64,000 bases of DNA from Rhodospirillales bacterium (lineage in GTDB: Bacteria > Pseudomonadota > Alphaproteobacteria > Rhodospirillales > JANQFP01). Shown piece after piece: positions 13,721-51,944 of the stretch. Made by a program: the position numbers and the translations under genes. Numbering within the stretch: position 1 is the stretch's first letter; each line of letters opens with the position of its first letter. The notes under the pieces were generated by a model. The model worked only from the letters and a program-made list of their open reading frames with translations. It was not told where the DNA came from and did not search any database. The stretch is taken from assembly GCA_028277795.1 (NCBI GenBank), contig JANQFP010000252.1:22490-86489 (forward strand). The letters are read 5' to 3'.

Positions 13721-13998
13721 ACCGGAAAGACCGGGCACACACCCCTCCACGTGGTCGCCGCCTCGGCGGCACGAAAAAAACGCGAGCCCGGACCATTGCC
13801 GAGGTTCGCGAAGCCCTTCGCCCTTTGATAGGAGAAGTTCCAGTTTCCCGCAACTGTCATTTGGCGTTGTTCCAATGATTTGTGGGCAATCGGTGCCGCG
13901 GCGCAACAGCTTCGGATCATCCCCAAGGTTGTCATTGTCAGGTGGGGCTGCACGCCGTACTTTCTTGGCGGCGGATTCGGGGAGGGGGCTACGGGGAG

Positions 13999-14613: not shown

Positions 14614-14662
14614 CCGCGCCCACTTGCCGGCCGTAAAACCCGAGGAGGTTGGATCGACAGAC

Positions 14663-15286: not shown

Positions 15287-16303
15287 TCACTCCTTTTCCG
15301 CGGCTGCCGGCCGCCATGAGAACCCGGCACCCATGGCCAGGCCCGACAGGATCCACACCAGCTCGCGGAAACGGCGGACCACGGCCACCGCCACGCCCAG
15401 GGTCGGCGACCCGGTGATGGCGGTGCACACGATCAGGAAGCCCCCTTCCTGGGCGCCCAGGCTGATGGGGATGAAGAAGGTGCCGGCACGCACGAGCTGC
15501 GCCACCGCCTCGATCATCCAGGCCTCGGTGAACGACACCGGATGGCCCAGGAAGGCCATGGCGGCATAGACCTCGAGCACGCCCAGAAACCAGTTGATCA
15601 GGCCCAGGGTCGCCGCCACGGCGAAGCGCCCGCGGCGACGGGTGTAGAACGCCACCAGGCGCTCGTCCACATCGTGGATCAGGTGCAGGACCTCGTCGAG
15701 GCGGCGGGCGATGCGCCAGCGGCTGAGGCGGCTTCCGGTGGCCGAGGAGATCTTGAACCGCTGCACCAGGAAGAACAGCCCGATGCCGACCACCAGGGCC
15801 GTCAGGCCGGCCCCGGCCACCGACTTCAGGGACGCCGGCATGGCCGGCGAGGCGATGAGGAAGGCGAAGCCGCCGCCCAGGAAGACGATGAGAGCCAGCA
15901 GGTTGATGGTCTTGGCGAGGATCAGCGACGCCGTGCCCTCCCGGTAGCCGACGCCGTAATGGCGCTTGAGCAGCACCGCCTTGACCGGCTCGCCGCCCAT
16001 GCCGCCGGCGGGGATGACGGCGTTGAAGGCCTCGCCCACCATGCGCACCTTCCACAGGCGGTACAGCCACCGGCCGTCCACCGGCAGCGAGCCGACGGTC
16101 AGCAGCCACGACAGGGAATCGAACACGAAGGCCAGCAGGTAGAGCCCCAGGACCACCAGGATGCCCCACCCCACCTGGCCGACCCGCGCCGCCACCTGGG
16201 CCAGATCCACGTCGTGCAGGACCAGCGCGAGCAGCCCCAGGCCGAGGAGCAGGTAGAGGCCCTTCAGCCAGCGCACGGCGCGCCGCTTCCGCTCACCGGT
16301 CAC
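15287..16303 (-). CDS. hpnL: HpnL-like integral membrane protein (UPF0104 / lysyl-PG-synthase TM-region family)
   Basis: ~8 TM helices and a flippase-like family pattern. GTG start overlaps the hpnN stop by 11 nt. Confidence 0.7.
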   Translation of the reverse strand: MTGERKRRAVRWLKGLYLLLGLGLLALVLHDVDLAQVAARVGQVGWGILVVLGLYLLAFVFDSLSWLLTVGSLPVDGRWLYRLWKVRMVGEAFNAVIPAGGMGGEPVKAVLLKRHYGVGYREGTASLILAKTINLLALIVFLGGGFAFLIASPAMPASLKSVAGAGLTALVVGIGLFFLVQRFKISSATGSRLSRWRIARRLDEVLHLIHDVDERLVAFYTRRRGRFAVAATLGLINWFLGVLEVYAAMAFLGHPVSFTEAWMIEAVAQLVRAGTFFIPISLGAQEGGFLIVCTAITGSPTLGVAVAVVRRFRELVWILSGLAMGAGFSWRPAAAEKE

Positions 16304-18893
16304 CGGCCGGCACCCGCGGCCACAGCACCATCAACGCCGGCAGCACGGTCAGGGTGCAGGCCAGGGTGAGACCGATGGCCGCTGTCAGCAGCACGCCCAT
16401 GCTCGACGTGCCCGGGTGGCTGGACAGGGCCATGCTGCCGAAGGAGCCGATGGTGGTCAGCGCGCTCAGCACCACGGCCCGCGGCGTGCTGGTCCTCAGC
16501 ACCCGCCCGGTGTCGCCCTCGCCGCGCTCGCGGGCCACCAGGTGGATGCCGCTGGCCACGCCCAGGCCGAACAGCAGGGGCAGGACGATGACGTTGGCGA
16601 AGTTGAACGGCAGGCCCACCAGCACCGAGACGGCCACCGTCAACAGGGCCGCCAGGCCCAAGGGCGCGAACACCAGCAGCACGTCCCGGGGGCGGCGCAT
16701 CAACGCCGCCAGCAGCACCGCGATCAGGGCCAGGGCCAGGGCCGCGGCCTGGACGAACGCCCGCACCACGGCCCGGCCCGCCTCCAGGATGATCACCGGC
16801 GATCCGGTGGCCGCCGGCGCCTGCGTGCGCACCGCCTCGACGAACCGGCGCAGGGCGTCGGGATCGCGCAGGTCGTCGCGGGGAAACACCTGGACGCGGA
16901 CCCGGCCGTCGGTGGCCACGTGCCGCTCGCGCAGGCCCGCCGGCAGGTCATCCACGGTGACCGGCCCGGCCTCCAGGGCCTCCACGAGCGCGTCCAGGCG
17001 CCCCGGCAGGCCCGCCAGCAGCCCCGTCTCCAGGTCCCGCAGCACTTCGTCGGTCGGCGCCGCCGGCAGCGCGTCGGCGAGGCGACGGGCCGCCGCCATG
17101 GCCCCCTGCCCCGCCGCGAGCCGGACGAGCCGGTCGCGGAGGCGGTCAAGGGCGGCCCGGCGCGCCGCCATGTCGGGCGGCTCCTTGGGCGGGGCGGCGA
17201 GGGCCGGCGCCAGGTACAGGGCCATGGTCCCGATGATGTCCAGCTTGCCGTCCTGGTTGGCGGGCACGTAGTCGCCGATGGTGCGCACCCCGTCCACCGG
17301 GCCCAGATCCTCCAGGCGCCGCGCCATGTCCTCGGCCGCGGCCATGTCCCCGGCCAGCACGGTGATGGTGTAGGGACTGGTCTCCGGGTCGGCCATCAGG
17401 TCGAACAGGGTGGAGACCGATTCGGTCTCCGGGTCCTTCAGGTTCAGGGGATCGAAATCGAAGCGCGCCTGCGGCACCGTTACGGCGGCGGCGGCGGCCA
17501 CCGCCAGGGCCCCCCAGGCGATGGGGACGGCCCGCGCCCCGATCACCTGTCGGGCCCCGCGCCAGGCCGGCTCCCGGTGCCGGTGCGCCGACGGCCGCAG
17601 GGGCATCAGGGTGAGCATGGCCGGCAGCACGGTGGTGTTGGTGATCAGGGCGATGACCATGCCGGTGCCGGCGATCAGCCCGAGCTCGGCCAGACCCTTG
17701 TAGTCGGTGGGCAGGAACGCGAAGAAGCCGATGGCCGCGGCCACGGCGCACAGGGTCAGCGCCCCGCCCGAGCCCTTGGCGGCGGCGGCCAGGCCCTTCC
17801 GGTGGTCGGCTCCGCGGTCCACCGCCTCCTTGTAGCGCAGTCCGAAATGGATGCCGAAATCGACGCTGAGGCCGATGAACAGGACGGCGAAGGCGACGGA
17901 GATCAGGTTCAGGCTGTCCAGGGCGGCGACGGCGAACCCCGCCGTCCATACCAGGCCCGCCAACAGGGTCGCCACGATGGCCAGGGCCAGGCGCGGCGAC
18001 CCCAGCCCGAACAGCAGCAGGGTCACGACGACCGTGAGCGACAGGACCGCCGCCAGGCCCAGGCCGTCGCGGACGCTCAGCAGCTCCTCCTCGGCCAGGG
18101 CGGCCGAGCCGGTCAGGCGCACGCGGACGCCGGCGTCCTCGTCGAGACCCAGCTCGGCCACCAGGCCGCGCAGGGCGGCGATGGCTTCGGCCGCAGGCTG
18201 CAGGGAGCCGAAGTCCAGCACCGGCTGGATCAGGATCAGGCGGCGGCCGTCGTCGCCGCCGGTCATCAGTTGGCGCCACGACAGGCGGGCGAACCGGCCG
18301 TCGGCTCGCGCCTCGGCCACCTCGGCCATCGCAGTCAGGACGGGAGCAACATCGATGGGCGGATCCTCATCCGCAACCAGGATCTCGTCGATCGCAAGGG
18401 TCAGCATGTCGGCCAGGCCGCGCAACGTGGGGTCGCGCCGGAGCGCGCCGAGGAACGGTTGGGCCTCGGCCAGGCGGTCGGCCAGCGCCTCCAGGGCGTC
18501 GGTATCCATGTAGAGGAGCCCGTGGCGGCGGAAGAAGGGCTCGCCGGCCGGATCATAGACGTCGCCGAACAGGGCCGGGCGCTCCCTGAGCCGCGCTGCC
18601 AGGAGCCGCGCGGCATCGTCGGCCAGGTCCCCGGTGGCCCCGTCGATGACCACCAGGATGTTGTCCGAGAACTGGGGAAACGCCGCCGACAGGGCGCGGG
18701 AGTTCTGACGGAACGGCAGCTCCGCCGACAACATGTCCTCGGTGTCGGTGTTGATGGTCACGGCGTCGACCACGTAGGCGCCGATGGCGACGGTGGCCGT
18801 TACCGCGGCCAGCACAACAGCGGCGGCGCCACGCCGGACCAGGTCGACCCAGCGGACGACCCAGCGGCGGAACCTGGCGGCGGCTTCGGTCAC
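16293..18893 (-). CDS. hpnN: hopanoid-associated RND/MMPL transporter HpnN
   Basis: 866 aa with duplicated 6-TM plus periplasmic-loop RND architecture. Located in the hpn cluster next to hpnL/hpnM-like genes. Confidence 0.85.
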   Translation of the reverse strand: MTEAAARFRRWVVRWVDLVRRGAAAVVLAAVTATVAIGAYVVDAVTINTDTEDMLSAELPFRQNSRALSAAFPQFSDNILVVIDGATGDLADDAARLLAARLRERPALFGDVYDPAGEPFFRRHGLLYMDTDALEALADRLAEAQPFLGALRRDPTLRGLADMLTLAIDEILVADEDPPIDVAPVLTAMAEVAEARADGRFARLSWRQLMTGGDDGRRLILIQPVLDFGSLQPAAEAIAALRGLVAELGLDEDAGVRVRLTGSAALAEEELLSVRDGLGLAAVLSLTVVVTLLLFGLGSPRLALAIVATLLAGLVWTAGFAVAALDSLNLISVAFAVLFIGLSVDFGIHFGLRYKEAVDRGADHRKGLAAAAKGSGGALTLCAVAAAIGFFAFLPTDYKGLAELGLIAGTGMVIALITNTTVLPAMLTLMPLRPSAHRHREPAWRGARQVIGARAVPIAWGALAVAAAAAVTVPQARFDFDPLNLKDPETESVSTLFDLMADPETSPYTITVLAGDMAAAEDMARRLEDLGPVDGVRTIGDYVPANQDGKLDIIGTMALYLAPALAAPPKEPPDMAARRAALDRLRDRLVRLAAGQGAMAAARRLADALPAAPTDEVLRDLETGLLAGLPGRLDALVEALEAGPVTVDDLPAGLRERHVATDGRVRVQVFPRDDLRDPDALRRFVEAVRTQAPAATGSPVIILEAGRAVVRAFVQAAALALALIAVLLAALMRRPRDVLLVFAPLGLAALLTVAVSVLVGLPFNFANVIVLPLLFGLGVASGIHLVARERGEGDTGRVLRTSTPRAVVLSALTTIGSFGSMALSSHPGTSSMGVLLTAAIGLTLACTLTVLPALMVLWPRVPAGDR

Positions 18894-19816: not shown

Positions 19817-19838
19817 CCTGACAACCGAGAAATCAGCT

Positions 19839-20462: not shown

Positions 20463-20466
20463 CATC

Positions 20467-21111: not shown

Positions 21112-21169
21112 CGCCAGAGTCCACTTCACCTCAACAGTGACGCTCACCGTCGAGAGTAGGCTTCGGACC

Positions 21170-21784
21170 ATGAAGGCGCCGCCCTGGGATCAACGCATCG
21201 CCCGGACCCTGGTTCGGCCCCTCGCCGGCACGCCGGTGACGCCCAACCATGTCACCGTGCTCACCATCGTCCTGGCCCTGACCGGCGCCGGATTGCTGGC
21301 GGTCGGCGATCCCGTTCTCGCCAACTGGGGCGCCGGCCTGTTCGTGCTCGCCCGCTTCATGGACCACCTGGACGGCGAGCTGGCCCGGCAGACCGGACGC
21401 ACCTCGCGGGTCGGCTACTACCTGGATTACGGGGCCGGAGGACTGAGCTACGCCGCCCTGTTCCTCTGCATCGGCATCGGCTTCCGCGACGGCGCGCTGG
21501 GCCCGTGGGCCATCGCCCTGGGGGTGGCCGGCGCCGCCTCCGCCGTCGTCTCGCTGTTCCTGAATCTCGGCATCGACCGAGCCCAGAAGCGGAGGCAGGG
21601 CACCGAAGGCGACGCCGTCGGCTACCCCGGGTTCGCCGGCTTCGAGCTGGAGGACGGGATCTATCTGCTGGCGCCGGTGACCTGGCTCGGCTGGCTGGAG
21701 CCCTTCTTCGTCGCCGCCGCCATCGGGGCCGTGGTCTACACCTTGTGGAGCGTGGGGCGTCTGGCCCTGGTGCGCCGCCGGTAG
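21170..21784 (+). CDS. CDP-alcohol phosphatidyltransferase-family membrane protein (motif variant lacking the last Asp)
   Basis: DHLDGELARQTGRTSRVGYYLDYGAG matches DGxxAR-x8-G-x3-D, but the final conserved D is G. Multi-TM. Paralogue of the convergent gene. Start could be GTG 21137. Confidence 0.75.
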   Translation: MKAPPWDQRIARTLVRPLAGTPVTPNHVTVLTIVLALTGAGLLAVGDPVLANWGAGLFVLARFMDHLDGELARQTGRTSRVGYYLDYGAGGLSYAALFLCIGIGFRDGALGPWAIALGVAGAASAVVSLFLNLGIDRAQKRRQGTEGDAVGYPGFAGFELEDGIYLLAPVTWLGWLEPFFVAAAIGAVVYTLWSVGRLALVRRR

Positions 21785-22362
21785 AGGATCGCCGCGAACA
21801 GCAGCGCGAAGGCCGGCGCGCCGATGGTCGCCGCCCACAGGAGCGGCAGGGACCAGCCCAGCCACACCGCCACCGGCACCGCCAGCACGGCGTCGTCCGG
21901 GTCGAATCCGGCGAAGCTGCCCAGCTCGGCGGCCCGCTCGCCGCCCAGGGCCTCCATGCGGACCGTCATCCACAGCACCGCGGCAATGGCGCCGCCGGCC
22001 AGGACGCCCATGGGGATGGCCCACATCCCCAGTTCGCTGCTTCCGAGGCCGATCCCGAGGCCGACGAAGGCCAAGGCGTTGGACAACGCGTCGGCCCACA
22101 GGTCGTAGACGTGGCCCCGGGCCGACGTGCGGCCGGTGGCGCGGGCCAGTTCGCCGTCCGCCCGGTCGAGCACCATCGACACCACGAACACGGCGCCGCC
22201 CACGTGGATCCACGGGGCCGCGCCGGTGGCCAGAAAGGCCGCCGCCGCCAGCCCGCCGGCCAGCCGCAGGGTGGTGAGCTGGTTGGGGGTCACCGGCGTC
22301 GCCGCCAGGGGGCGGACGATGGCGACGCGGGCCAAGCGGTGAATCCAGGTGTTGTGGCTCAC
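21736..22362 (-). CDS. CDP-alcohol phosphatidyltransferase-family membrane protein (complete motif)
   Basis: DRADGELARATGRTSARGHVYDLWAD gives the full DGxxAR-x8-G-x3-D-x3-D motif. GTG start at 22362 overlaps the ppd stop (GTGA). Only the C-terminal part of track ORF 21736-22854 is considered coding. Confidence 0.8.
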   Translation of the reverse strand: MSHNTWIHRLARVAIVRPLAATPVTPNQLTTLRLAGGLAAAAFLATGAAPWIHVGGAVFVVSMVLDRADGELARATGRTSARGHVYDLWADALSNALAFVGLGIGLGSSELGMWAIPMGVLAGGAIAAVLWMTVRMEALGGERAAELGSFAGFDPDDAVLAVPVAVWLGWSLPLLWAATIGAPAFALLFAAILYRRRTRARRPTLHKV

Positions 22363-23507
22363 GGCGCCGCCCCGTCGGCGAGGAAGGCCCGGAAGCGCCG
22401 CGCCACCTCGGACGGATGCACCGTCGGCCGGCCGAGCCCGGACATGGAGCCGGGCGCGATGCGCATGTGCACCAGGGCCGGCCCGGCGGCGCCGAGGGCG
22501 TCGGACACGGCCGACGAGAAGCCGTCCGCGGAATCGCAGACCGCCGCCCGGGAGTATCCGCAGGCGAGCGCGGCGCCGGCGAAGTCCACCGCCGCCGACA
22601 CGGTCGGCTGACCGCCGGTCGAATCGTAGGTGCCGTTGTCGAGCACCACGTGGAGGAGGTTCTTTGGCGCATAGGCGCCGATGGTGGCCAGGGTCCCCAT
22701 TTTCATCAGTGCCGCCCCGTCGCCGTCGACCACCACCACCGGGCGGTCCACCCCCAGCGCCACGCCCAGCCCCATGCCCGCCGCACAGCCCATGGAGCCC
22801 ACCTGATAGAGATGCTGCGGGCGGTCGGCAAGGGTGAACAGCTCGCGGCCGCATTTGCCGGTGGTGGCGATCACCGCCGCCGCCTCGGGCAGAGCCTCCA
22901 GCAGGCGCTCCAGCACCGCCATGCGGGCCGGCGGGGCCCCACCCTCCTCCAGGTCCCGGCGAACCCCGGTCGGCCGCGGCCCGGGCGCCAGGGCGTCCAG
23001 CGCGGTCTCGGCCACGTCGCCCTTCTCCATGATGAAGGCGAAGGGCAGGCCGGTGTCCTGCATGCGTTCCGTGGCCTCGGACAGGGCACCGGCCACGTCT
23101 TCGGCGGCCTTGGGGAACGGCCGGTGGGGAACCCGGATGGTGTCCAGCAGGGCCGGGGTGATCTGCCCCATGAGCTCGTGCTGGGGCTCGTCCTCGAGGC
23201 CGGGGCCGCCCCGCCAGGTGACCACCAACAGCGTCGGGATTCGGAACGGAAAATTTAAAGAAGTTAGTGGGTTAACGGCGTTTCCTAAACCGGAATTCTG
23301 ACACATGACGACGCTGTCGCGGCCCGTCAGCCAAGCGCCGGCGGCGATGGCCACCGCCTCGCCCTCGCTGGCCGCGGCCACGTAGGTCAGGGACCGGTCG
23401 CCGAGGGTGCCGTTGATGATGGGGGTAAGGAACGAGCACGGCACGCCGGTGAAGAACTGCAGGCCGGCGGCGCGCGCCGGCCCCAGAAAGGCGTCGGCGT
23501 CGATCAC
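22359..23507 (-). CDS. aepY: phosphonopyruvate decarboxylase
   Basis: ThDP enzyme: N-terminal [11 protein letters not shown] ... [13 protein letters not shown] and ThDP motif [34 protein letters not shown] 23507 overlaps the upstream stop (GTGA). It is the C-terminal 382 aa of track ORF 22359-24950. Confidence 0.85.
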
Positions 23508-25225
23508 AGGAACTGGCCCGCGTGCACCAGGTCGGCGGCGTCGTCCACGTCCAGCCACTGGCCGGCCACATACAGCACCCGCACCGTCGTCTCGCCGCCC
23601 GCGGCCAGACGGCTGAACAGGTCGAGCAGGCTGGCCTTGGGCAGGGTCCCGTCGGCGGCCATGGCCTCGATGACGCCGCGCACGGCCGCGCAGCCGCGGT
23701 CGCTGAGGCGGGCCAGGCCCACCCATTCGCCGTGGGCGCGGTCCGGGGGCACGTCGTTGCCCATGCGCACCAGGGTGACCGGGTCGTCGTCCAAATAGCT
23801 GCCGGAGAAGGGCCGCGAGCACACCGCCAGGTCGCGCACCGGGTCGGATCCGCTGACCGCGCGTTGGCGCCACAACGCATCCACGGCCACCACGACGTCG
23901 CCGTCGGCCGCCATCAGCTGGTCCAGGTAGTGGTGGCGGAACAGGATGTCGCCGTAGGCGATGACGCAATCGCCCTGCAGGTGGTCGGCGGCACAGGCCA
24001 GGCTCGCCGCCTCGCCGGTGACCGCGTAGAGGTCGTTGTCCACGGTGCGGATGGACGGCAGGTTGATCATCTCCTTGCGGTAGCCGCGGACGACGGTGAC
24101 CTCGCCCACGCCCCCCTCGCGCAGGGTGGCGATGAGGCGGCGCAGCAGCGGCTCGCCGCGCACGTCGATCATGCACTTGGGGCGGTCGGCGGTAAGCGGC
24201 CCCAGGGCGGCGCCGCGGGACGCCGCCAGCAGCACGGCGCGCCGCTCCGGCGGCCCCGAGGACGGCAGGTAGCGGCGCTCGGCCTCGGCCAGCTCGTCGT
24301 TGCCGGCCAGCTCGAAGACCTCGCCGACGCTGGCCACCTGGCCCTCCACGCCGACCAGGCTCTCCTCGCGCTGGATGCGGCGCGACACCTCGCGCATGGC
24401 AGTGATGGCGGCGCGCAGGTTGTGATTGGCCCAGATGGCCACCGAGAACCCGGCCTGGCGGAACACCGAGGTGGGCGTCGTGTGGTACTTGGTGGGCACG
24501 ATGACCACCGGCGCCCGGTCCCCCCACGCACCCTTGAAGGCCAGCACCTCGTCGGCGGTGGGCATCTTGGAGTGGATCAGCAGGGCGTCGGCGCCGGCGG
24601 CGTGGTAGGCCTCGGCCCGGCGCAGGGCCTCGTCCAGCCCCCAGCCCGAGATCAGCGCCTCGATGCGGGCCACAAGGCAGAAGTCGGGGTCCGTCTGGCT
24701 GTCCTTGCCGGCCTTGATCTTGCCGCAGAACTCGTCGATGTCGGCCAGGGGCTGGCCCTCGCCGATGAACGAGTTGGTCTTGGGGAACAGCTTGTCCTCG
24801 ATGCAGATGCCGCCGATGCCCCGCTGGCACAGTTTGGCCACGGCCCGGCGCACGTTGTTGAAGTTGCCCCAGCCGGTGTCCCCGTCCACCAGGATGGGGA
24901 TGGAGGTGGCGTCGGCCATGAACTCCAGGACCTCCAGCACCTGGGTCCACGACGCCTCGTTGTTGTCGCGCACCCCCAGGGCGGTGGCGATGGACAGCCC
25001 CGATGCCCAGATGCCCTTGAACCCCGCCTCCTCGACGATCTTGGCCGACATGCCGTCGTGGGCCTCCATCAGGAACTCGAGGCGCGGAGACCGCAACAGG
25101 GCGGCGAGGCGGGCGGCCTTGGTGATTTCGGCGGGCTCGGCGGCGCCGAGGGGACGGAGGGGTGTGGTCATGGCGGTGCGGGCAGGACGGGGTTGAACGC
25201 GGACCGGCAGGTCGTTTAGTTTCAC
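23504..25225 (-). CDS. aepX: phosphoenolpyruvate phosphomutase fused to a C-terminal nucleotidyltransferase (cytidylyltransferase-like) domain
   Basis: Ppm-diagnostic EDKxxxxxNS motif ([10 protein letters not shown]) within an isocitrate-lyase/PEP-mutase fold. C-terminal ~270 aa has an NTP-transferase pattern ([25 protein letters not shown]). The start may instead be ATG 25171. Confidence 0.85.
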
Positions 25226-25305
25226 GCGGCTGTCATTATATCAACACGAAAGTGCAACAAAAGCGTCGCCGTGCCGGCGGCCGAACAAGGGTTTTCAGTT
25301 CCGCC

Positions 25306-26064
25306 ATGCTCCGCACTCCCGTGCTCACCGAGCCGCAGATCGAGGCCTTCCGCGACACCGGCTATCTGGTCGTGCGCGGCGCCTTCGACGCCGCCGAAAT
25401 GACCCGAGTCGACGCCTGGGCCCGAGAGATCGCCGCCTGGCCCGAGGTCTCGGGCCGCCACTGGGTGTTCCACGAGAAAAGCCGCAAGGGCGACGACGCC
25501 GACCTCATCTGCCGCATCGAGAAGCTGTCGCCGTTCCACGACGGCTTTGCCGAGCTGAGCCGGGTGCTGGAGGGCCCCGTGGGCCAGCTCATGGGCGAGC
25601 CGGCGGTGCTGTTCAAGGAGAAGATCAACTTCAAGATGCCGGGCGGCGACGGCTTCAAGCCCCACCAGGATTCCCAGGCCGGCTGGGACGCCTACGCCGA
25701 GTTCTTCGTCAGCGCCCTGGTGTGCATCGACGAGGCGACGCCGGAGAACGGCTGCCTGCAGATGGTGTCGGGCCACCACCGGCGCGGGCTGTTCCGCTCA
25801 TGGGAGCCGCTGACCGACGAGGACATGGCGGGCATGGACTTCGTCGACTGCCCGACCAGGCCCGGCGACATCGTGTTCTTCGACTGCTACGCGCCCCACG
25901 GCTCCCAGCCCAACATGAGCGACCAGACCCGGCGCATCTACTTCGCCACCTACAACAAGGCCTCCGAGGGCGACCACATGGCCCGGTACTACGCCGACAA
26001 GCACAAGACCTATCCCCCCGACATCGACCGCGAGCCGGACAAGGAGTACGTGTTCCGGGTGTAG
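25306..26064 (+). CDS. PhyH-family Fe(II)/2-oxoglutarate dioxygenase
   Basis: HxD facial-triad motif (KPHQDS), distal His (APHGSQPN) and Arg (RRIY). Divergent from the ppm operon. Confidence 0.8.
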   Translation: MLRTPVLTEPQIEAFRDTGYLVVRGAFDAAEMTRVDAWAREIAAWPEVSGRHWVFHEKSRKGDDADLICRIEKLSPFHDGFAELSRVLEGPVGQLMGEPAVLFKEKINFKMPGGDGFKPHQDSQAGWDAYAEFFVSALVCIDEATPENGCLQMVSGHHRRGLFRSWEPLTDEDMAGMDFVDCPTRPGDIVFFDCYAPHGSQPNMSDQTRRIYFATYNKASEGDHMARYYADKHKTYPPDIDREPDKEYVFRV

Positions 26065-26089
26065 GCGCCGGCGCCTGGGCGGTTCGGGC

Positions 26090-26479
26090 TTAGAGGGCCG
26101 CCGGGAGATCGGTGGCGGAGAAGTCCGTCCCTTTGAACAGCAGCGGCGCGCCGGTGGCCTTGGCCAGCGCGTAGGCGAAGCAGTTACCGAAGTTCAGGGC
26201 GGCTCGGTGGCGGCCTTTGCCGTAATCGAGATAGGCTTGGCGCGCGATTCGCACGTGCTCCGGGGACACCGGCACCACCGTCAAGCGCGCCCGATCGACG
26301 AACGCGTCGAGCTGGCGTCCGGCGGCGGCACCGAGCTGGCTGTCGATGACGATGGCCGTTTCGAGAAGGTTCGCCGCCGAGATGACCGGACGCTCGGCCG
26401 CCGCGATGGCCGCCGCATAGGCCGGCCCGTCGGGCTCGGCGAACAGGATCGCCAACAGGGCGGAGGTGTCGATCACCAT
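26090..26479 (-). CDS. vapC: type II toxin VapC (PIN-domain ribonuclease)
   Basis: MVIDTSALLAIL ... start typical of PIN toxins, with conserved acidic residues. 129 aa, directly downstream of the antitoxin. Confidence 0.85.
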   Translation of the reverse strand: MVIDTSALLAILFAEPDGPAYAAAIAAAERPVISAANLLETAIVIDSQLGAAAGRQLDAFVDRARLTVVPVSPEHVRIARQAYLDYGKGRHRAALNFGNCFAYALAKATGAPLLFKGTDFSATDLPAAL

Positions 26480-26490
26480 CGATGCCCCCG

Positions 26491-26742
26491 TCAGCGCGGC
26501 AGGCCGCGGTCGTCGTACAGAAGCTCGTCGTGGCTCCGCGTGTCGGCGCGGCCGTGGGCGGCGCAGCGCCGTCCGATCTCCATCAGGTCGCGGGCCAAGG
26601 CGTCGCGCTCGCGGTGCCGGCGCTCCCGTTGCAGCCGCTCGCGGATGGCCTCGGTCACGCACTTGGTAATGCTTTCGCCGGTCAGCCGCGCGAGTTCCAC
26701 GGCCAGGGCATGGGCCTCCGGGGCTTTGATATTCAGGCTCAT
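26491..26742 (-). CDS. vapB: type II antitoxin VapB-family
   Basis: 83-aa ORF MSLNIKAPEAHALAVELARLTGESITKCVTEAIRERL, typical of VapB/FitA-like antitoxins. 11 nt upstream of vapC. Confidence 0.8.
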   Translation of the reverse strand: MSLNIKAPEAHALAVELARLTGESITKCVTEAIRERLQRERRHRERDALARDLMEIGRRCAAHGRADTRSHDELLYDDRGLPR

Positions 26743-26928
26743 GGTAGAAAAGCACCGTGTTTGTCTAGCCTTCTATAAACCTACGGCCGAATGGCGGTCG
26801 TTTCAAGGTCCCCACAGGGCCCGAAAGGCTACGATCGGAGTCCCCCGAGGCACGGCCGAATTGATCTTGCACGGCGCGCCAAAGGTCGGCCAGCATGGGT
26901 CCGCCAACCGCCGGAGACGGAGACCAAG

Positions 26929-27231
26929 ATGGAGAACCTGGACGGCACTCAACCGCCAAAGGAGTTTGGCCCCCAGGCATCCCTGCTGAAGCGGTGGGTC
27001 CTGGGCGGCATCTGCATCGTGCTGGTTCTCGCGTTCCTGTGGTTCGTGGCCACTCAGCTCGGCGACGGCCAAGGCTGCGAGGGTTGCATGTCCTTCCGCG
27101 GCGGCGAGTCCGACGGGCCACCCATCTGGATGTTCGCCCTCGGCACCCTCCTTGTCGTCGCCGTTGCCTTGGCGGCGCCGGTCCTCGCAAGACTGGGCAT
27201 GAAGTCTGGCGCCGAGTCCGACGACACCTGA
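26929..27231 (+). CDS. hypothetical small membrane protein (weak call)
   Basis: ~100 aa with two hydrophobic helices. Internal ATG of track ORF 26791-27231. No family recognised. Confidence 0.3.
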   Translation: MENLDGTQPPKEFGPQASLLKRWVLGGICIVLVLAFLWFVATQLGDGQGCEGCMSFRGGESDGPPIWMFALGTLLVVAVALAAPVLARLGMKSGAESDDT

Positions 27232-27308
27232 GCCGGCGTCTGGACGGCAGCCGAGGCCGTGGTCGAAGCCTCGCGAAGTTCGGATGCCAACGTTGACGGA
27301 TTGACAGA

Positions 27309-27893
27309 ATGAGTCCGCGACCAATCGTATCGTTGATTTGGCAAGGCCCTATCGGTGTCGGCAATCTTCCTGGGCTGGAGGGCCAGAAGGATTTGGTCGG
27401 ACCGCATATCTACGTCATATGCCAACATTACGCGAATCACACGACCGTCTATGTGGGCCAATCCAAGACTTTCTTGAATAGGCTTTGGCAGCATTATCTA
27501 AATTTCTTGGGGCTTCATTATCTTATTCGGGACGAAGACGGCGAACATGTCTATGATCCACGTAATGACGACATGTTTGAAAAGCTCAATAATCTGAAAG
27601 AGTTTTTCAGTTTTATTGTCAATGACGTGAGCAGGACGAGGATATTTTACGCAAAGTGTGCGCCAAAGGCCTTGGATCCAGTTGAAAGTACATTGATTGA
27701 CCACGCCTTTACAAATTTTCCGTACGAATCAAACGACAAGAAATATCGGTGTGACAATACTCGTCGTCAAAACTATGGAGACGATGACACACCAATAACC
27801 ATTGATATGAAATACGAGAGATTGGAGGATAATGGTAAAGTCGTGCTCAAAGAAATATTCGGCGAGCAAGTAAAGTGCAAATTTGACGCTTAG
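27309..27893 (+). CDS. GIY-YIG nuclease-domain protein (orphan)
   Basis: HIYVICQHYANHTTVYVGQSKTFLNRLWQH fits GIY-x10-YxG ... R ... H, and the downstream VESTLID supplies the conserved Glu. Lies in a visibly AT-rich ~650-bp islet. Confidence 0.6.
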   Translation: MSPRPIVSLIWQGPIGVGNLPGLEGQKDLVGPHIYVICQHYANHTTVYVGQSKTFLNRLWQHYLNFLGLHYLIRDEDGEHVYDPRNDDMFEKLNNLKEFFSFIVNDVSRTRIFYAKCAPKALDPVESTLIDHAFTNFPYESNDKKYRCDNTRRQNYGDDDTPITIDMKYERLEDNGKVVLKEIFGEQVKCKFDA

Positions 27894-27953
27894 TATTTTC
27901 CAATCCGTCGGGGTTTGCCCCACGAATTTCGAAAGGTCGACCGCACGAGCTGA

Positions 27954-28769
27954 TCAGCCGTGGCCGACCCGGCCGGTGCCGCGCATCGGGGCTGGGTGAG
28001 CCGCCGCGTCGTGGGTGTCGTGCGCCGGACCGACGATGCGCGGGAGAATCTTCTTCTCGGCGCGCAGCAGGTCGGCCGGGAAATCGATCTCGATCCACGG
28101 GATGCCGGTGATGTCCTCGACGCCGAAGGTGCCCGGCGGCTCGCTGACCAGCACGTCGCGCATGGCCACCTCGTAGGTCACGCCCATCCGCGCCTCGTCC
28201 ACCAGGGCCTGGGCGGCATCGGCCATGCGGGCCGCGATCTCCGGGGTCATGGTGAGGAAGCCGGGCCACTCCCCGATCATGTCGAAGGTCCCCTCCACCT
28301 TCTTGCCGAAGTCCACCGGCAGACCGTCGCGCAGGCACAGCTTGACCGGCTCGTCACCCGGCTCGATGGCTTGGTCGAGCAGGAAGCAGTTGCCATGGGT
28401 CGACGTCACCAGCCGCTCGATGAGCCGCGGGTCGTAGAGCACGTCGGCGTCCATGAACAGCACCGGCGCCCCCTCCCGCAGCACCTCGCGGGCGGTCCAG
28501 AACGACAGGATTGGACCGCCGCGGAAACGCGGATTGTAGAGGCTGCGCACGTAGTCACGGGCGCCGATGGCGCGGACCTCGGCCAGGATCTCGTCGTGGC
28601 GGTAGCCGAGCACCATCACCAGCTCGTCCACCCCCACCGACTGCAGCACCCGGATGTGGCGCTCCAGCAGGGTGGCGCCGGCGAAGCGCAGCAACGACTT
28701 GGGCGGCTGCCGGTAGTCGTCGCCGTACAGGCGCGACCCCACGCCCGCCGCCAGCATCAACGCTTTCAT
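27954..28769 (-). CDS. nucleotidyltransferase (LicC / sugar- or phospho-alcohol cytidylyltransferase-like)
   Basis: N-terminal MKALMLAAGVGSRL nucleotide-binding motif (LAAGxGsR) and NTP_transferase fold pattern. Confidence 0.75.
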   Translation of the reverse strand: MKALMLAAGVGSRLYGDDYRQPPKSLLRFAGATLLERHIRVLQSVGVDELVMVLGYRHDEILAEVRAIGARDYVRSLYNPRFRGGPILSFWTAREVLREGAPVLFMDADVLYDPRLIERLVTSTHGNCFLLDQAIEPGDEPVKLCLRDGLPVDFGKKVEGTFDMIGEWPGFLTMTPEIAARMADAAQALVDEARMGVTYEVAMRDVLVSEPPGTFGVEDITGIPWIEIDFPADLLRAEKKILPRIVGPAHDTHDAAAHPAPMRGTGRVGHG

Positions 28770-28846: not shown

Positions 28847-29173
28847 TCAAGGCTGATTCAAGGGTCCGTCGTGAAATCGTTGCGGTACTTCGTCACTGGA
28901 CATGCTGACGAAGGCGGCGGCCACGATGAGGACCAGGGCCCAGGTCACGGCGCCGGCCGGGGCGGCGGCGGCGAGCACCGCCACGCCAAGTACCGTGAAC
29001 GCCACCTGCACCATCAGGCCGACGGTGAAGTCGCCGACGACCGAGGCTGCCGCCACGGCCCGGCCCACCGCGGCCACGTCGACGGACGCGAACATGGCGA
29101 CGGCCACGGCCATTCCGATGAAGGCCAGGATTGTCGCCCTCAACCACGATCGGTTCCCGGTAGCCTCACTCAC
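28847..29173 (-). CDS. hypothetical small membrane protein translationally coupled to hpnA
   Basis: GTG at 29173 overlaps the hpnA stop (GTGA). ~108 aa with three very hydrophobic Ala/Val-rich helices. Confidence 0.4.
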   Translation of the reverse strand: MSEATGNRSWLRATILAFIGMAVAVAMFASVDVAAVGRAVAAASVVGDFTVGLMVQVAFTVLGVAVLAAAAPAGAVTWALVLIVAAAFVSMSSDEVPQRFHDGPLNQP

Positions 29174-30162
29174 GAAAGGAACCCGTTGTCGCGGAACCAG
29201 GCGACGGCATCGACCAGTGCCTGGCGGGCCGGGCGCCAGCGGTAACCCAGGGCGCGCGCGGCCTTGGCGCTGGAGAAGAACATCTTCTTCTTGGCCATGC
29301 GCACCCCGTCGGCGGTGGCGAAGGGCTCGTCGCCGCCGCTCAGGCGGGTCCACGCCTCCGCCACGTAGGCGATGGGCATGACCAACCCGTGGGGCAGGCG
29401 CACCCGCGGCGGCGGCCGCCCCACGATGGCCGCGATTTCGGCCAGGATATCGCCCAGGGTCATGTTCTCGCCCCCGAGGACGTAGCGCTCGCCGATGGTG
29501 CCCTTGTCGAAGGCCAGCAGGTGGCCCTCGGCCACGTCGTCCACGTGGACGATGTTGAGGCCGGTGTCCACGTAGGCCGGCATGCGGCCGGCCGCGGCCT
29601 CGACGATCATGCGCCCGGTGGGGGTCGGCTTGACGTCGCGCGGGCCCACCGGGGTGGACGGGTTGACGATGACCACCGGCGCCCCCTCCTCGGCCACCAG
29701 CCGCATCACCGCCTCCTCGGCCCGGAACTTGGACTGCTTGTAGGGGCCGATCATGTCGGCGAAGGCGACCGGGGTGTCCTCGTCGCCGGAGCCGCCGCCC
29801 GCCGGCACGCCCAGGGTGGCGACGCTGCTGGTGTAGACGACGCGCCGTGCCCCCGCCTCGGCGGCGGCCCGCACCACATCAAGCGAGCCGTCCACGTTGG
29901 CGCGGAACATGGCGTCCGGATCGCGGGTCCACAGGCGATAGTCGGCAGCCACATGGAACACGCCGTCGCAGTCGCCGCAGGCGCGCCGCAGCGACGCCGG
30001 GTCGGTGAGGTCGCCCTCGGCCGTCTCCACCACCAACCCATCGAGGTTGCGGCGGTCGCCCGTTGGCCGCACCAGCACCCGCACCACGTGCCCCGCGGCA
30101 AGCAGCCTCCGGGCCACCGCCGAGCCGACGAACCCGGTGGCCCCGGTCACCAACATCCTCAC
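29170..30162 (-). CDS. hpnA: hopanoid-associated NAD-dependent sugar epimerase/dehydratase HpnA
   Basis: Rossmann motif [10 protein letters not shown] and the SDR-extended pattern (YxxxK: YKQSK). hpn cluster context. Confidence 0.8.
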
Positions 30163-30341
30163 GCGCGGTCTCCGATGGTCCGCCCCCCGTCCGGTGCGGG
30201 CCGATCTTGCACGGAACCGGCCGGCGGGTCCAACGATGCGTGGCCTTCACCGGTTCGCGAGCCGGTCGCAACGGCCCTTCCCCTGGCGGCCAAAGGTCCC
30301 TATGTTTGCAGCGCAATCTGTGCAATGCGGTATCGGGTGCC

Positions 30342-31292
30342 ATGGCAACCGAACGATCGTTCCAAGTGCTTCTCGCCCAGCCTCGCGGCTTCTGCGCCGG
30401 CGTCGAACGGGCGATCGATATCGTCGAGCGGGCGCTGGAGCGTTTCGGGCCGCCCGTGTACGTGCGCCACGAGATCGTCCACAACAAGCGCGTGGTGGAT
30501 ACCCTGCGGGACAAGGGCGCGGTGTTCGTCGAGGAGATCGACGAGATCCCGGACGACGCGGTCACCGTGTTCAGCGCCCACGGCGTCGCCGAGGCGGTGG
30601 AGATCCAGGCCAAGCAACGGGACCTGCCGGTGATCGACGCCACCTGCCCCCTGGTGTCCAAGGTCCACCACGAGGGCCAGCATCACTCCCGCAAGGGGCG
30701 TGAGGTCATCCTCATCGGCCACCAGGGACACCCCGAGGTCGAGGGGACCCAGGGCCGCATCGCCGGTGGAGTCCATCTGGTGACCACCGCCGACGACGTG
30801 GCCCGGCTCGCGGTGCGCAACCCCGAGGCAGTGGCCTACGTCACCCAGACCACGCTGAGCGTCGACGACACCCGCGAGGTCATCGACGCCCTGAAGGTGC
30901 GTTTCCCGGCCATCGTCGGCCCCGACGTCAAGGACATCTGCTATGCCACTCAGAACCGCCAGGCGGCGGTCCGGGAGCTGGCCGCGCAGGTCGACCTGCT
31001 GCTGGTGGTGGGGGCTCGCAACAGCTCCAACTCCAACCGCCTGCGCGAGATCGGCACGGAAACGGGGGTGCCCAGCTATTTGATCGACGATGCAGAGGGT
31101 CTCGAAGCGGCGTGGCTCGATGGAATCGAGACCGTCGGCATCACGGCCGGCGCCTCGGCGCCCGAGGAACTGGTCCGGGAGCTGATCGCCCGCCTGCGCG
31201 ATTTCGGCACGGTCGAGGTGACGCCCATGGACGGCGTCAAGGAGCACACCCAGTTCAAGCTTCCGCGCGAGCTGATGCCGGCGGCCGAGTAG
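30342..31292 (+). CDS. ispH: 4-hydroxy-3-methylbut-2-enyl diphosphate reductase
   Basis: [25 protein letters not shown] ... with conserved Cys positions of IspH/LytB. ATG at 30342. Confidence 0.9.
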
Positions 31293-31310: not shown

Positions 31311-32444
31311 GTGAGCGTTCCCTTAATCCAGCAGGTGCGGGTCGGCGCCTACATCCTCGGCAAGCGGTTGCGCGGCGTGGAGCGCTATCCCCTCGTGCTG
31401 ATGCTGGAGCCCTTGTTCCGCTGCAACCTGGCCTGCGCCGGTTGCGGCAAGATCGACTACCCGGACGCCATCCTCGACCGCCGCCTCAGCGTGCAGGAGT
31501 GCCTGGACGCGGTGGACGAGTGCGGAGCCCCGGTGGTCTCCATCCCCGGCGGCGAGCCCCTGCTGCACAAGGAGATCGACCAGATCGTTGACGGCATCGT
31601 TGCGCGGCGCAGGTTCGTCTACCTGTGCACCAACGGCCTGCTCCTGGAGCGGAAGCTGGACCTGTTCCGGCCCAGCCCCTACCTCACCTTCTCCGTCCAC
31701 CTGGACGGCCTGGAAGCGGAGCATGACGAAGCGGTGTGCCAGGAAGGCGTTTTCCTCCGTGCCGTCGCGGCCATCCGCGCCGCCCGCGCCCGCGGCTTCC
31801 GGGTCAACGTCAACTGCACCCTGTTCGACGGCATGGCGCCCGACCGGGTGGCAGCCTTCTTCGATTTCTGCACCACCGAGCTGGACGTGGAAGGAATCAC
31901 GGTCTCCCCCGGCTACGCCTACGAACGCGCCCCCGACCAGGAGCACTTCCTCAACCGCCGCCGCACCAAGGAGTTGTTCCGCGACGTCTTCCGGCGCGGC
32001 GCGGAGAGGTGGACCTTCAACCAGTCGCCCCTGTTCATGGACTTCCTGGCCGGCAACCAGAGCTACCCTTGCACGCCGTGGGGCAACCCGACGCGCAACG
32101 TGTTCGGCTGGCAGCGGCCGTGCTACCTGCTCAACGAGGGCTATGCCGCATCGTTCCGCGAGCTCATGGAGGACACAGACTGGGACGCCTACGGCACCGG
32201 CAACTACGAGAAGTGCGCCGACTGCATGGTCCACTGCGGCTACGAGGCGACGGCGGTCAACGACACCATCTCGCACCCCTTGAAGGCCCTAAAGGTGGCG
32301 CTCAGCGGCTTCGACACCGAGAAGCCCATGGCCCCGGAGATCCCGCTTGACGGCCAGCGCCCGGCCGAGTTCGTCTTCGAGCACTTGGTCGAGACCCTGA
32401 ACCGGCCCGACCCAGGCCCCGGCGAGCGCAGCGACGCAGCCTAA
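31311..32444 (+). CDS. hpnH: adenosylhopane synthase, hopanoid radical-SAM protein HpnH
   Basis: Radical SAM motif CNLACAGC. ~377 aa with a C-terminal Cys-rich region (CADCMVHCG). hpn context. Confidence 0.85.
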   Translation: MSVPLIQQVRVGAYILGKRLRGVERYPLVLMLEPLFRCNLACAGCGKIDYPDAILDRRLSVQECLDAVDECGAPVVSIPGGEPLLHKEIDQIVDGIVARRRFVYLCTNGLLLERKLDLFRPSPYLTFSVHLDGLEAEHDEAVCQEGVFLRAVAAIRAARARGFRVNVNCTLFDGMAPDRVAAFFDFCTTELDVEGITVSPGYAYERAPDQEHFLNRRRTKELFRDVFRRGAERWTFNQSPLFMDFLAGNQSYPCTPWGNPTRNVFGWQRPCYLLNEGYAASFRELMEDTDWDAYGTGNYEKCADCMVHCGYEATAVNDTISHPLKALKVALSGFDTEKPMAPEIPLDGQRPAEFVFEHLVETLNRPDPGPGERSDAA

Positions 32445-32999: not shown

Positions 33000-33069
33000 G
33001 GCATGGTCTCCGTCACCCTTCACGATGACGGTCAGGAACGATCATGTCAATCTTTGCTAGCAAACTTTG

Positions 33070-33759
33070 TTAATTTGTCGATTTGGCAAGTCCGAAACCG
33101 GGACCGGCGAGCGCGGCGACGCGGCGCAAGGCCGCGAGGCCGCGCGCCGAATCCCGGCGCAGACGGATCAGACCGGGCAGCTCGGCGGGGCGGCGCAGCA
33201 GGGCGGCGACAACCGCGCCGGTGCGGCGACGGCCGTCGCGCGACATGCCGCGCAGGGCTGCTTTGGGGACCGTCGTTCCCGCCGGGTCGGAAATCGCCCG
33301 CACCACCAGGAAGGGCACGGATGACGCCAGGGCGACCGCGGCGATGGCGTGGCTTTCCATGTCCACCGCCGCGGCACCCGTTTCCGACCGCATCCGCTGC
33401 TTGGCGGCAGGGGTCATGACCACCCGCTCGCTGCCCACCAGCGTGCCGCCGACCACCGGAACGCGGCCCTCGACCAGACGCGACAGGGACTCGCTCCAGG
33501 CCGCGTCGGTGGGATAGGTGGTGCCGTCGGGGGCGGCCACGGACTGGGCCAGAACCACGGTGCCGGGGGCCAGCGTTGGGTCGAGGCCGCCGGCGATACC
33601 GAAGCTGACCAGGGCTCCGCAGCCGTCCGCGATCAGGGTCCACGCTGCCGTCCGCGCCCGGTCGGTGCCAATGCCGGTGCGCCGGACGGCCAGGCCCGGC
33701 CCCTGGCGCAGACACCGGGCCTCCACGTCCATGGCAGTGACGATGCCGACCAGGGGCAC
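33070..33759 (-). CDS. hpnG: hopanoid-associated phosphorylase/nucleosidase HpnG
   Basis: PNP/UDP phosphorylase-family pattern (AVDMESHAIA). Directly downstream of shc. Confidence 0.8.
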   Translation of the reverse strand: MPLVGIVTAMDVEARCLRQGPGLAVRRTGIGTDRARTAAWTLIADGCGALVSFGIAGGLDPTLAPGTVVLAQSVAAPDGTTYPTDAAWSESLSRLVEGRVPVVGGTLVGSERVVMTPAAKQRMRSETGAAAVDMESHAIAAVALASSVPFLVVRAISDPAGTTVPKAALRGMSRDGRRRTGAVVAALLRRPAELPGLIRLRRDSARGLAALRRVAALAGPGFGLAKSTN

Positions 33760-39436: not shown

Positions 39437-39460
39437 GGATACACGACGGGGCGTCAGCCG

Positions 39461-40609: not shown

Positions 40610-40610
40610 G

Positions 40611-51837: not shown

Positions 51838-51871
51838 GGCCGGAGCCCGCAAAATAAGGCCCACGCCCGCA

Positions 51872-51889: not shown

Positions 51890-51944
51890 GTGCAGAAAAT
51901 TAACATCCGGTGTCTCCTCGACCGCGTTGTCGAGGGGATATCTG

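Follow-up and report, generated by a model that had tools for sequence, protein, structure and literature searches.

Why would a bacterium carry the genes for a phosphonate head group in the middle of its hopanoid (hpn) biosynthesis cluster? Hopanoids count among the main membrane lipids of bacteria and serve as biomarkers in geology, and phosphonates form a large pool of reduced phosphorus. The question is posed by a 64-kb stretch of DNA from a Rhodospirillales bacterium (contig JANQFP010000252.1, positions 22,490 to 86,489; hereafter the window), which encodes a fusion of phosphoenolpyruvate (PEP) mutase (Ppm) with a cytidylyltransferase, a phosphonopyruvate decarboxylase (Ppd), two CDP-alcohol phosphotransferases, a PhyH-family dioxygenase and a second PntC-like enzyme, set between hpnM, hpnL and hpnN on one side and hpnA, ispH, hpnH, hpnG, shc and hpnEDBC on the other. 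The feature is real, conserved and functionally coherent. We tentatively propose, with slightly less than even confidence, that the region is a native, anciently linked hopanoid sub-module making a two-carbon phosphonate head group for a bacteriohopanetetrol-type hopanoid, and hence a phosphono-hopanoid. The locus and its relatives tie the hopanoid and phosphonate fields together, in that a 'phospholipid gene' of the phosphonate core can be identified by its profile matches as HpnL and the module forms apparent operons with hpnN, hpnM and hpnA. No product has yet been assigned to the phosphonate gene clusters of the family that is commonest in bacteria, and hopanoid papers of 2025–26 describe the functions of HpnL, HpnA and HpnB as unknown.

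A phosphonate module in the hopanoid cluster

A preliminary description of this DNA, made from its letters and translations, had assigned families to all six module proteins, and profile searches found every assignment correct. It had also placed three minus-strand open reading frames (ORFs) in a chain (25225>23504, 23507>22359 and 22362>21736). These coordinates hold, with GTGA start/stop overlaps at 23504–23507 and 22359–22362; GTG starts overlap TGA stops at both junctions, and ppm, ppd and the last gene, transferase B, are translationally coupled. The first gene (23504..25225, minus strand) encodes Ppm fused to a LicC/PntC-type cytidylyltransferase. It matches TIGR02320 at 380 bits (cut-off 319.55), PF13714 at 203 and, in its C-terminal half, PF12804 at 50; the ten-residue mutase motif EDKxxxxxNS is present in the translation, and the database version of the protein starts at M19, with a length of 555 amino acids. 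Ppd (22359..23507, minus strand) exceeds the TIGR03297 cut-off (421 against 312.5 bits) and carries the expected thiamine diphosphate motif, GDG-x24-LDNG. Divergently transcribed from ppm, again as first described, is a PhyH-family Fe(II)/2-oxoglutarate (2OG) dioxygenase (25303..26064, plus strand; PF05721, 112 bits). Its best NCBIfam match, the methylphosphonate hydroxylase PhnY* (NF052437), scores 171 bits, under the equivalog cut-off of 500, and outscores any other NCBIfam match by more than 130 bits; the enzyme is probably a phosphonate C1 hydroxylase. PhyH co-occurs with ppm in more than 30 loci, and in Burkholderiaceae clusters a HalD-like 2OG enzyme unrelated to PhyH sits in the same place. 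That unrelated 2OG enzymes fill this place suggests that the oxygenation step matters.

Two cytidylyltransferase domains accompany these enzymes. The stand-alone PntC-like nucleotidyltransferase (NTase; 27954..28769, minus strand; PF12804, 57 bits) lies 400 bp from hpnA, where the preliminary description had put a second LicC-like enzyme, and is separated from PhyH by a gap of about 1.9 kb made up of insertions. Its best solved relative is Treponema denticola PntC (6PD1, 1.2e-7, full length), and its top NCBIfam match is IPCT/DIPPS. The Ppm-fused domain finds its best PDB match in LicC (1JYK, 1.6e-11). Judged by these matches, both domains, only 24% identical to each other, belong to the LicC/PntC group; their preference for 2-aminoethylphosphonate (AEP) or another phosphonate is putative. 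The stand-alone enzyme accompanies ppm even at loci that have no nearby hpn gene, and we rejected the idea that it is an IPCT-like member of the hpn cluster on this ground and because its best solved relative is PntC.

The CDP-alcohol phosphotransferases (cpt) are paralogues with 39% identity, convergent and overlapping at their 3′ ends by 49 nt: paralogue A at 21137..21784 on the plus strand (PF01066, 41.5 bits) and paralogue B, the last gene of the ppm operon, at 21736..22362 on the minus strand (50.2 bits; cut-off 22 for both). The preliminary description credited both with the family motif. Both pass PF01066, and paralogue B has the complete motif, D-x2-DG-x2-AR-x8-G-x3-D-x3-D, but paralogue A reads DHLDGELAR-x8-G-YYL-D-YGA-G and is missing the fourth Asp. 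The whole clade of paralogue A has G, A, V or S in place of this last Asp. Asp-less copies are probably active, since two loci (L010 and L013 in our numbering) contain no other transferase copies. The clade (the window, L005, L009, L010, L012, L013, L016, L021, L029 and L033) keeps DHxDGELAR and a Tyr/His-rich stretch. The best solved relatives of paralogue B, AF2299 (4O6M) and IPCT/DIPPS (4MND), use soluble CDP-alcohol donors. The conservation of two PntC-type activating enzymes within the module makes a scheme with CDP-diacylglycerol as donor and a hydroxy-phosphonate as acceptor less likely.

An AEP transaminase (AEPT) is absent from the 64-kb window and from the colinear loci L006, L012 and L039 by tblastn with the AEPT of L013, a query that matches 36 other loci; a class V aminotransferase was likewise not seen in L094 or L095. 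Because the window has no AEPT gene, the locus alone reaches phosphonoacetaldehyde and not AEP. Of the route to CMP-activated AEP set out in the preliminary description, the Ppm and Ppd steps to phosphonoacetaldehyde are therefore supported by curated cut-offs, and the AEP step is incomplete.

Base composition speaks to the origin of the module. In the window, with an overall GC content of 68%, real genes have a GC content at third codon positions (GC3) of about 0.9. The phosphonate module, at 0.90–0.96, equals the hpn genes and is therefore native to the genome rather than recently acquired. Recent horizontal acquisition could be ruled out on the same measure, as true insertions have GC3 values of 0.50–0.88, mostly well under the 0.90–0.96 of host genes.

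By gene content the module corresponds to a family already in the literature. The 'Burkholderiales_CDP-OH' gene cluster families are the 'Group 1' phosphonolipids of Yu et al. 2013, with a seven-gene core and a predicted 1-hydroxy-AEP lipid, and in the account of them given in PMC8942020 no product is characterised. The two 'phospholipid' genes of that core are the CDP-alcohol transferase and an LPG_synthase_TM protein (PMC8942020). The group, which includes Burkholderia pseudomallei, makes up 36% of RefSeq ppm neighbourhoods. Tested against this core, the window has the Ppm–PntC fusion, Ppd, Fe/2OG oxygenase, second PntC, CDP-alcohol transferase and LPG-synthase-type protein, all six, and no AEPT; on this comparison its module is a variant of the Group 1/CDP-OH phosphonolipid cluster, a described family of uncharacterised product.

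Linkage of ppm clusters and hpn genes

To place the window among its relatives, we gathered 80 loci from species-representative genomes via the Ppm–NTase fusion, which reached a top identity of not more than 73%, and mapped the window proteins onto them; a second sampling route, via the transferase rather than Ppm, gave L094 and L095. Linkage to hpn genes was counted only in loci with 8 kb or more of sequence on each side (n = 35), 13 with and 22 without a CDP-alcohol transferase. Among the transferase-bearing ppm clusters, hpn biosynthesis genes were nearby in 4, only HpnN/HpnL in 7 and neither in 2; among the transferase-free clusters the corresponding counts were 2, 0 and 20. Any hpn gene was thus nearby in 11/13 transferase-bearing versus 2/22 transferase-free clusters (Fisher's exact p = 1.2e-5). 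As a control, the transferase, NTase and HpnL were not found within 20 kb of four shc loci that lack ppm (Azospirillum, C. metallidurans, an M. extorquens plasmid and B. cenocepacia), and the transferase and NTase were accordingly rejected as generic members of hpn clusters. From the 11/13 against 2/22 split together with these ppm-free loci, the hpn link is specific to the lipid-type, transferase-bearing phosphonate module.

The adjacency is conserved rather than unique to this genome, with colinear loci in several species, one of them represented by a complete Thalassospiraceae genome. This colinear order (Type 1), hpnE-shc..hpnH-ispH-hpnA-NTase-PhyH-ppm-ppd-cptB-cptA-hpnN-hpnL-hpnM-hpnM-mlaA, is found in L006, L012, L023, L036 and L039, and also in L094 (the complete genome of Thalassospiraceae bacterium LMO-JJ14, CP134604.1) and L095 (a 4.2-Mb contig), with synteny extending to rpoH and groES/EL. 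In the interleaved Type 2 loci (L010, L013 and L016) the two gene sets mix: L010 has the packed co-directional runs hpnN>pntC>cpt>hpnA, hpnL>cpt and hpnM>ppm>ppd, suggesting operons shared by hpn and phosphonate genes. The Roseomonas type (L047, R. marmotae p1318-3) reads mlaA-hpnN..pntC-ppm-ppd-hpnL-AEPT-cpt-ispH-hpnH-hpnG-shc-hpnEDCBA. Type 3, PhyH-pntC-ppm-ppd-AEPT-hpnL-cpt-hpnN-cpt, occurs in Caulobacterales, Acetobacteraceae and unclassified alphaproteobacterial metagenome-assembled genomes (MAGs), with no hpn biosynthesis gene within 10 kb. In modules without nearby shc, the resistance–nodulation–division (RND) gene is bona fide HpnN (TIGR03480, 962–1069 bits), and the Type 3 copy from Phenylobacterium reaches 1143 bits against the stricter NF052374 (cut-off 1100). 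In the betaproteobacterium Mycetohabitans rhizoxinica the Group 1 core is followed by dxs, hpnN, hpnM, ispH, hpnH, hpnA, hpnB and shc. Several changes of gene order have left the link intact, and it is present in at least two classes of Proteobacteria.

Published data extend this picture. The same ppm–shc adjacency has been reported for Nitrosococcus (Gammaproteobacteria), and across Gammaproteobacteria Ppm and Ppd correlate with shc (r 0.38–0.43; for Ppm, r = 0.43, p = 3e-58; Table S7, 10.1101/2025.07.29.667474). The supplement of that preprint, which deals with hopanoid origin and transport, lists CDP-alcohol transferase, MobA-like nucleotidyltransferase, thiamine pyrophosphate-enzyme and class V aminotransferase families among recurrent shc neighbours; its text never mentions phosphonates and calls HpnL function unclear. 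Its Table S8 counts the CDP-alcohol phosphatidyltransferase, under the unnamed family '6', 1409 times in the neighbourhood of 3662 shc loci, a figure for all taxa together on which nothing here relies.

Two further loci show other arrangements. In a MAG labelled Rhodobacterales (L096, 1229–9251), ppd comes immediately after PhyH without an intervening ppm, and a third CDP-alcohol transferase lies between hpnN and hpnL. A Candidatus Udaeobacter locus (Verrucomicrobiota; L080, 1781–8835) carries cpt, an HpnA-like short-chain dehydrogenase/reductase (SDR; 38% identity), pntC, an HpnL-like gene and ppm-NTase, possibly the same module in another phylum.

HpnL and the acceptor of the head group

The membrane protein of the phosphonate core offers the closest tie to hopanoids. 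LPG_synthase_TM proteins of the core from Mycetohabitans, B. cenocepacia, Roseomonas marmotae and an alphaproteobacterial MAG (L069) pass the HpnL profile TIGR03476 at 260–371 bits (cut-off 195.65), which identifies this gene of the Burkholderiaceae/Acetobacteraceae core, at the level of family profiles, as HpnL. The window protein passes PF03706 and scores 156 bits with TIGR03476, under the cut-off; its orthologues lie inside ppm/CDP-OH clusters at more than 20 loci. HpnL-family genes (TIGR03476, 226–324 bits) are also found inside hpnI-hpnK-hpnJ clusters of Caballeronia zhejiangensis and Burkholderia sp. PAMC 26561, where HpnI/J/K are annotated as bacteriohopanetetrol glucosamine/cyclitol ether genes. 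As Schmerk and colleagues are said to have found in 2015, HpnI, HpnJ and HpnK decorate bacteriohopanetetrol specifically. HpnL therefore pairs with two head-group modules, one of them hopanoid-specific, which suggests that it is a general partner of hopanoid head-group modules. A neighbour-joining tree resolves four HpnL clades: hpnI-linked, Burkholderiaceae ppm-linked, Acetobacteraceae/Caulobacterales ppm-linked and window-type. The hpnI-hpnK-hpnJ loci in question are L092 (4566–10020) and L093 (8953–9966), with two copies in C. zhejiangensis p3. We rejected the notion that HpnL is specific to phosphonate clusters, as some paralogues lie with hpnI/J/K and others on their own, and in published data HpnL has a much wider distribution than Ppm. 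By sequence, HpnL has no relative among solved structures. According to published surveys, hpnL is missing from genomes without hpnH, and all predicted hopanoid producers have hpnN (PMC12583986).

From these parts a pathway can be outlined. Ppm would convert PEP to phosphonopyruvate and Ppd would convert this to phosphonoacetaldehyde, both steps being predicted from families over curated cut-offs. Phosphonoacetaldehyde may then become 2-aminoethylphosphonate, through a transaminase encoded elsewhere, or a hydroxyethyl-type phosphonate, and the PhnY*-like PhyH dioxygenase would hydroxylate C1 of the phosphonate. The Ppm-fused and stand-alone PntC-like cytidylyltransferases, by their LicC/PntC homology, would make CMP-phosphonate(s), from which the CDP-alcohol phosphotransferases would pass the phosphonyl group to a lipid hydroxyl. 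Gene context points to the polyol side chain of an extended, bacteriohopanetetrol-type hopanoid as the acceptor, giving a phosphono-hopanoid; we place a hopanoid acceptor a shade below an even chance on that context. The flippase-like HpnL-type protein would move the product over the inner membrane, and HpnN, the MlaC-like HpnM and MlaA may take it on to the outer membrane. A broader form of the proposal, which we hold to be plausible if distinctly short of even likelihood, is that transferase-bearing ppm clusters, including 'Burkholderiales_CDP-OH', make phosphonate-esterified bacteriohopanepolyols such as bacteriohopanetetrol-(1-hydroxy)-AEP, with HpnL as dedicated flippase and HpnN, HpnM and MlaA for export. 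The calculated [M+H]+ values of such candidates are 654.4857 for bacteriohopanetetrol-AEP, 670.4806 for bacteriohopanetetrol-hydroxyAEP, 655.4697 for bacteriohopanetetrol-HEP and 671.4646 for bacteriohopanetetrol-dihydroxyethylphosphonate.

Several points weigh against a phosphono-hopanoid. All evidence on the acceptor is guilt by association, and nothing computed here separates a bacteriohopanepolyol from diacylglycerol. Eukaryotic enzymes of the CDP-alcohol transferase family put AEP, from CMP-AEP, on diacylglycerol, so the chemistry gives no preference for a hopanoid acceptor, and a glycerophosphonolipid could be carried just as well by HpnL, HpnN, MlaC and MlaA. With no AEPT gene at the locus, the identity of the head group is uncertain, and the Asp missing from paralogue A is conserved in characterised family members. 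In B. cenocepacia the core, including HpnL, is present with no hpn biosynthesis gene within 65 kb on either side, and the module lies about 1.3 Mb from shc on the same replicon. A phosphonate-bearing hopanoid is not described in the literature searched, and recent surveys of intact bacteriohopanepolyols in Alphaproteobacteria mention none. Searches on phosphonolipid with hopanoid, hopanoid with aminoethylphosphonate, and PntC/CMP-AEP after 2021 found no experimental link, and the one Burkholderia paper in which both terms occur has no bearing on the question.

The strongest alternative keeps the same head-group chemistry and attaches the group to diacylglycerol or some other lipid outside the hopanoids. 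The resulting glycerophosphonolipid would be a phosphatidylethanolamine analogue, and the hpn link would reflect shared flipping and export and a joint outer-membrane role. We regard this as possible though on the doubtful side. The closest-linked genes are indeed the transport-type HpnL and HpnN rather than shc, with 7 of the 13 full-flank loci having only these; the B. cenocepacia module is distant from hpn biosynthesis genes, and the eukaryotic transferases offer a precedent with CMP-AEP and diacylglycerol. Against this, the HpnL and HpnN families are tied to hopanoid producers, HpnL paralogues pair with the hopanoid-specific HpnI/J/K module, and hpnA, which is not a transport gene, appears in an operon with pntC and cpt in L010. 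'Phosphonolipids' are what has been predicted for the cluster family, yet none has been characterised from Burkholderia even though the cluster is abundant and ppm expression has been detected (PMC8942020).

It is improbable that the product is no bilayer-lipid head group at all and is instead a soluble phosphonate diester, following DIPPS-like logic, or a phosphonate on a glycan, lipopolysaccharide or polyprenol carrier. IPCT/DIPPS and AF2299, the best NCBIfam and PDB relatives of the transferases and the stand-alone NTase, do join soluble CDP-alcohols to soluble alcohols; many transferase-free ppm-NTase clusters have no hpn link, around half of all ppm clusters are expected in the literature to make cell-surface products, and a polyprenyl synthase adjoins pntC in R. 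marmotae. The module is nevertheless constantly accompanied by a protein resembling flippases, a lipid exporter of the RND type and lipid carriers of the Mla type, and among the genes identified in colinear loci there is, except for hpnB, no glycosyltransferase or LicD-type transferase. Historical synteny, meaning a single arrival of an independent phosphonolipid island next to hpn genes and its inheritance ever since without functional coupling, is very unlikely: several linked loci are colinear and possibly of one ancestor, in B. cenocepacia there is no linkage between the module and hpn biosynthesis genes, and the window's hpn region tolerates insertions (five selfish modules), but the linkage holds through at least four gene orders and two proteobacterial classes with 50–60% identity in both module and hpn genes, the two gene sets are apparently interleaved at operon level, the association is specific to transferase-bearing clusters, and the module's GC3 is identical to that of host genes.

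Were the phosphono-hopanoid proposal true, two orphan problems, the product of the Group 1 cluster and the function of HpnL, would be solved together, and the lipid would represent a new class and perhaps a new biomarker, one that might escape standard hopanoid work-ups. Strains in which both orphan questions can be tested directly are available: Thalassospiraceae LMO-JJ14, Roseomonas marmotae, Mycetohabitans and B. cenocepacia.

Surrounding genes and known systems

The flanks named in the preliminary description (mlaA/mlaC, hpnL and hpnN on one side; hpnA, ispH, hpnH, hpnG, shc and hpnE/D/B/C on the other) were all recovered by profile search, the HpnL-like gene via PF03706. On the transport side lie a MlaA/VacJ-like lipoprotein gene (12782..14128, minus strand; PF04333, 224 bits; a maximal ORF whose true start is probably further downstream), named 'HpnS' in a 2025–26 preprint (10.1101/2025.07.29.667474) and holding the same position in L006, L012, L094 and L095; two copies of the MlaC-like hpnM (13882..14613, plus strand, TIGR03481 175 bits, with PF05494; and 14624..15280, plus strand, 210 bits; cut-off 160); the gene of the HpnL-like flippase-type LPG_synthase_TM protein (15287..16303, minus strand; PF03706, 99 bits), overlapping the end of hpnN by 11 nt; and hpnN itself, encoding an RND (HAE3/MMPL) hopanoid transporter (16293..18893, minus strand; TIGR03480, 993 bits, cut-off 751.85), which against the stricter equivalog NF052374 scores 745 bits, below the cut-off of 1100. 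Just past MlaA lies rpoH, as in the Thalassospiraceae genome.

On the biosynthetic side are hpnA (29170..30162, minus strand; SDR/epimerase family; TIGR03466, 500 bits, cut-off 368), ispH (30063..31292, plus strand; NF002188, 495 bits; conserved domain from about residue 97 of the maximal ORF), the adenosylhopane synthase gene hpnH (31311..32444, plus strand; TIGR03470, 554 bits), an hpnG-like nucleosidase/phosphorylase gene (33070..33759, minus strand; PF01048, 93 bits) placed between shc and hpnH as in L082, L094 and L095, the squalene–hopene cyclase gene shc (33772..35736, minus strand; TIGR01507, 772 bits) and hpnE, hpnD, hpnB and hpnC (37311..41462, minus strand; TIGR03467 401, TIGR03465 325, TIGR03469 548 and TIGR03464 288 bits, all over cut-offs). 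With shc, hpnH and hpnA–E clustered and curated cut-offs passed, this is a hopanoid biosynthesis cluster. A third MlaC-like gene adjoins hpnC (41483..42127, minus strand; PF05494, 152 bits), which brings the MlaC-like (HpnM-type) genes bordering the hpn supercluster to three; with the single MlaA gene, they lie on either side of it.

The window's hpn cluster is broken up, within about 18 kb, by five selfish modules (toxin–antitoxin, restriction–modification), all with GC3 lower than the surrounding genes and several markedly so. A RES–Xre toxin–antitoxin pair (Xre/ParS-type antitoxin, RES-domain toxin) with an orphan ORF (19112–21111; GC 0.51–0.60) occupies the divergent hpnN/cptA intergenic region, which in colinear relatives measures only about 150 bp. 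Between PhyH and the second NTase, the gap of about 1.9 kb consists of a VapC (PIN) and VapB (Rv0623-like) pair (26090–26742) and a 44%-GC orphan without family match (27309–27893), and a small membrane ORF is also there; the two flanking genes adjoin in L005 and L006, and in L094 and L095 a glutathione S-transferase-family gene alone stands between them. A ParD/ParE pair (32441–33041) separates hpnH from hpnG, and a BglII-like restriction endonuclease with an MT-A70 methyltransferase (35782–37250; GC3 0.61–0.69) separates shc from hpnE. Relatives free of insertions have the compact arrangement, which is the ancestral one. Elsewhere in the window, a lower-GC island (51112–53941) contains a LuxR/LuxI quorum-sensing pair and, after it, another PhyH-family dioxygenase, which has no relation to the phosphonate module.

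The idea of a phosphono-hopanoid is not new, since both shc–ppm adjacency and a 'terpene-phosphonate' have been published before: Guzman et al. 2021 (PMC8776678) proposed an 'undiscovered terpene-phosphonate' for shc–ppm 'hybrid' clusters of Roseomonas, and a 'terpene-phosphonate' or 'phosphonoterpene' was also speculated on by Li & Horsman 2022 (PMC8942020). That the preliminary description was aware of no such lipid agrees with the literature searched, but the idea itself had been put forward as speculation for Roseomonas and Nitrosococcus. Not found in that literature are the identity of the phosphonate-core membrane gene with HpnL and the specificity of the hpn link for transferase-bearing clusters; the apparent operon-level interleaving with hpnN, hpnM and hpnA and the HpnL parallel with hpnI/J/K; and the architecture with two transferases and no AEPT.

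Among known systems, the window module shares with Group 1/Burkholderiales_CDP-OH the Ppm–PF12804 fusion, Ppd, Fe/2OG oxygenase, second PntC, CDP-alcohol transferase and LPG_synthase_TM protein (HpnL), the product being uncharacterised in both. It differs in having no AEPT, two transferases (one Asp-less) and a PhyH-family oxygenase where Burkholderiaceae have a HalD-like one; and whereas the B. cenocepacia Group 1 module is distant from hpn biosynthesis genes, that of the window lies inside the hpn cluster. The Roseomonas hybrid cluster likewise sets ppm-NTase, ppd, HpnL, a CDP-alcohol transferase and pntC between hpnN/mlaA and ispH-hpnH-hpnG-shc-hpnEDCBA, but has AEPT, one transferase, no PhyH and another gene order. 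The HpnI/HpnK/HpnJ pathway is also a hopanoid head-group module with a membrane transferase and a flippase-like HpnL-family (TIGR03476) partner; it uses a glycosyltransferase and nucleotide-sugar donor in place of a CDP-alcohol transferase and CMP-phosphonate, and its HpnL copies form a separate clade. IPCT/DIPPS and AF2299, the nearest solved relatives of paralogue B, share the logic of nucleotidyl activation followed by CDP-alcohol transfer, although those enzymes act on inositol phosphate to give a soluble osmolyte and the window proteins score far under the family cut-offs, for instance at 66 bits versus 580. Eukaryotic Kennedy-type AEP-lipid synthesis has CMP-AEP as activated head group in common; in this pathway and in Bacteriovorax stolpii the acceptors are diacylglycerol or ceramide. 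The 1-hydroxy-AEP sphingophosphonolipid of B. stolpii resembles the predicted product in its C1-hydroxylated AEP head group, and its cluster belongs to another gene cluster family (PMC8942020).

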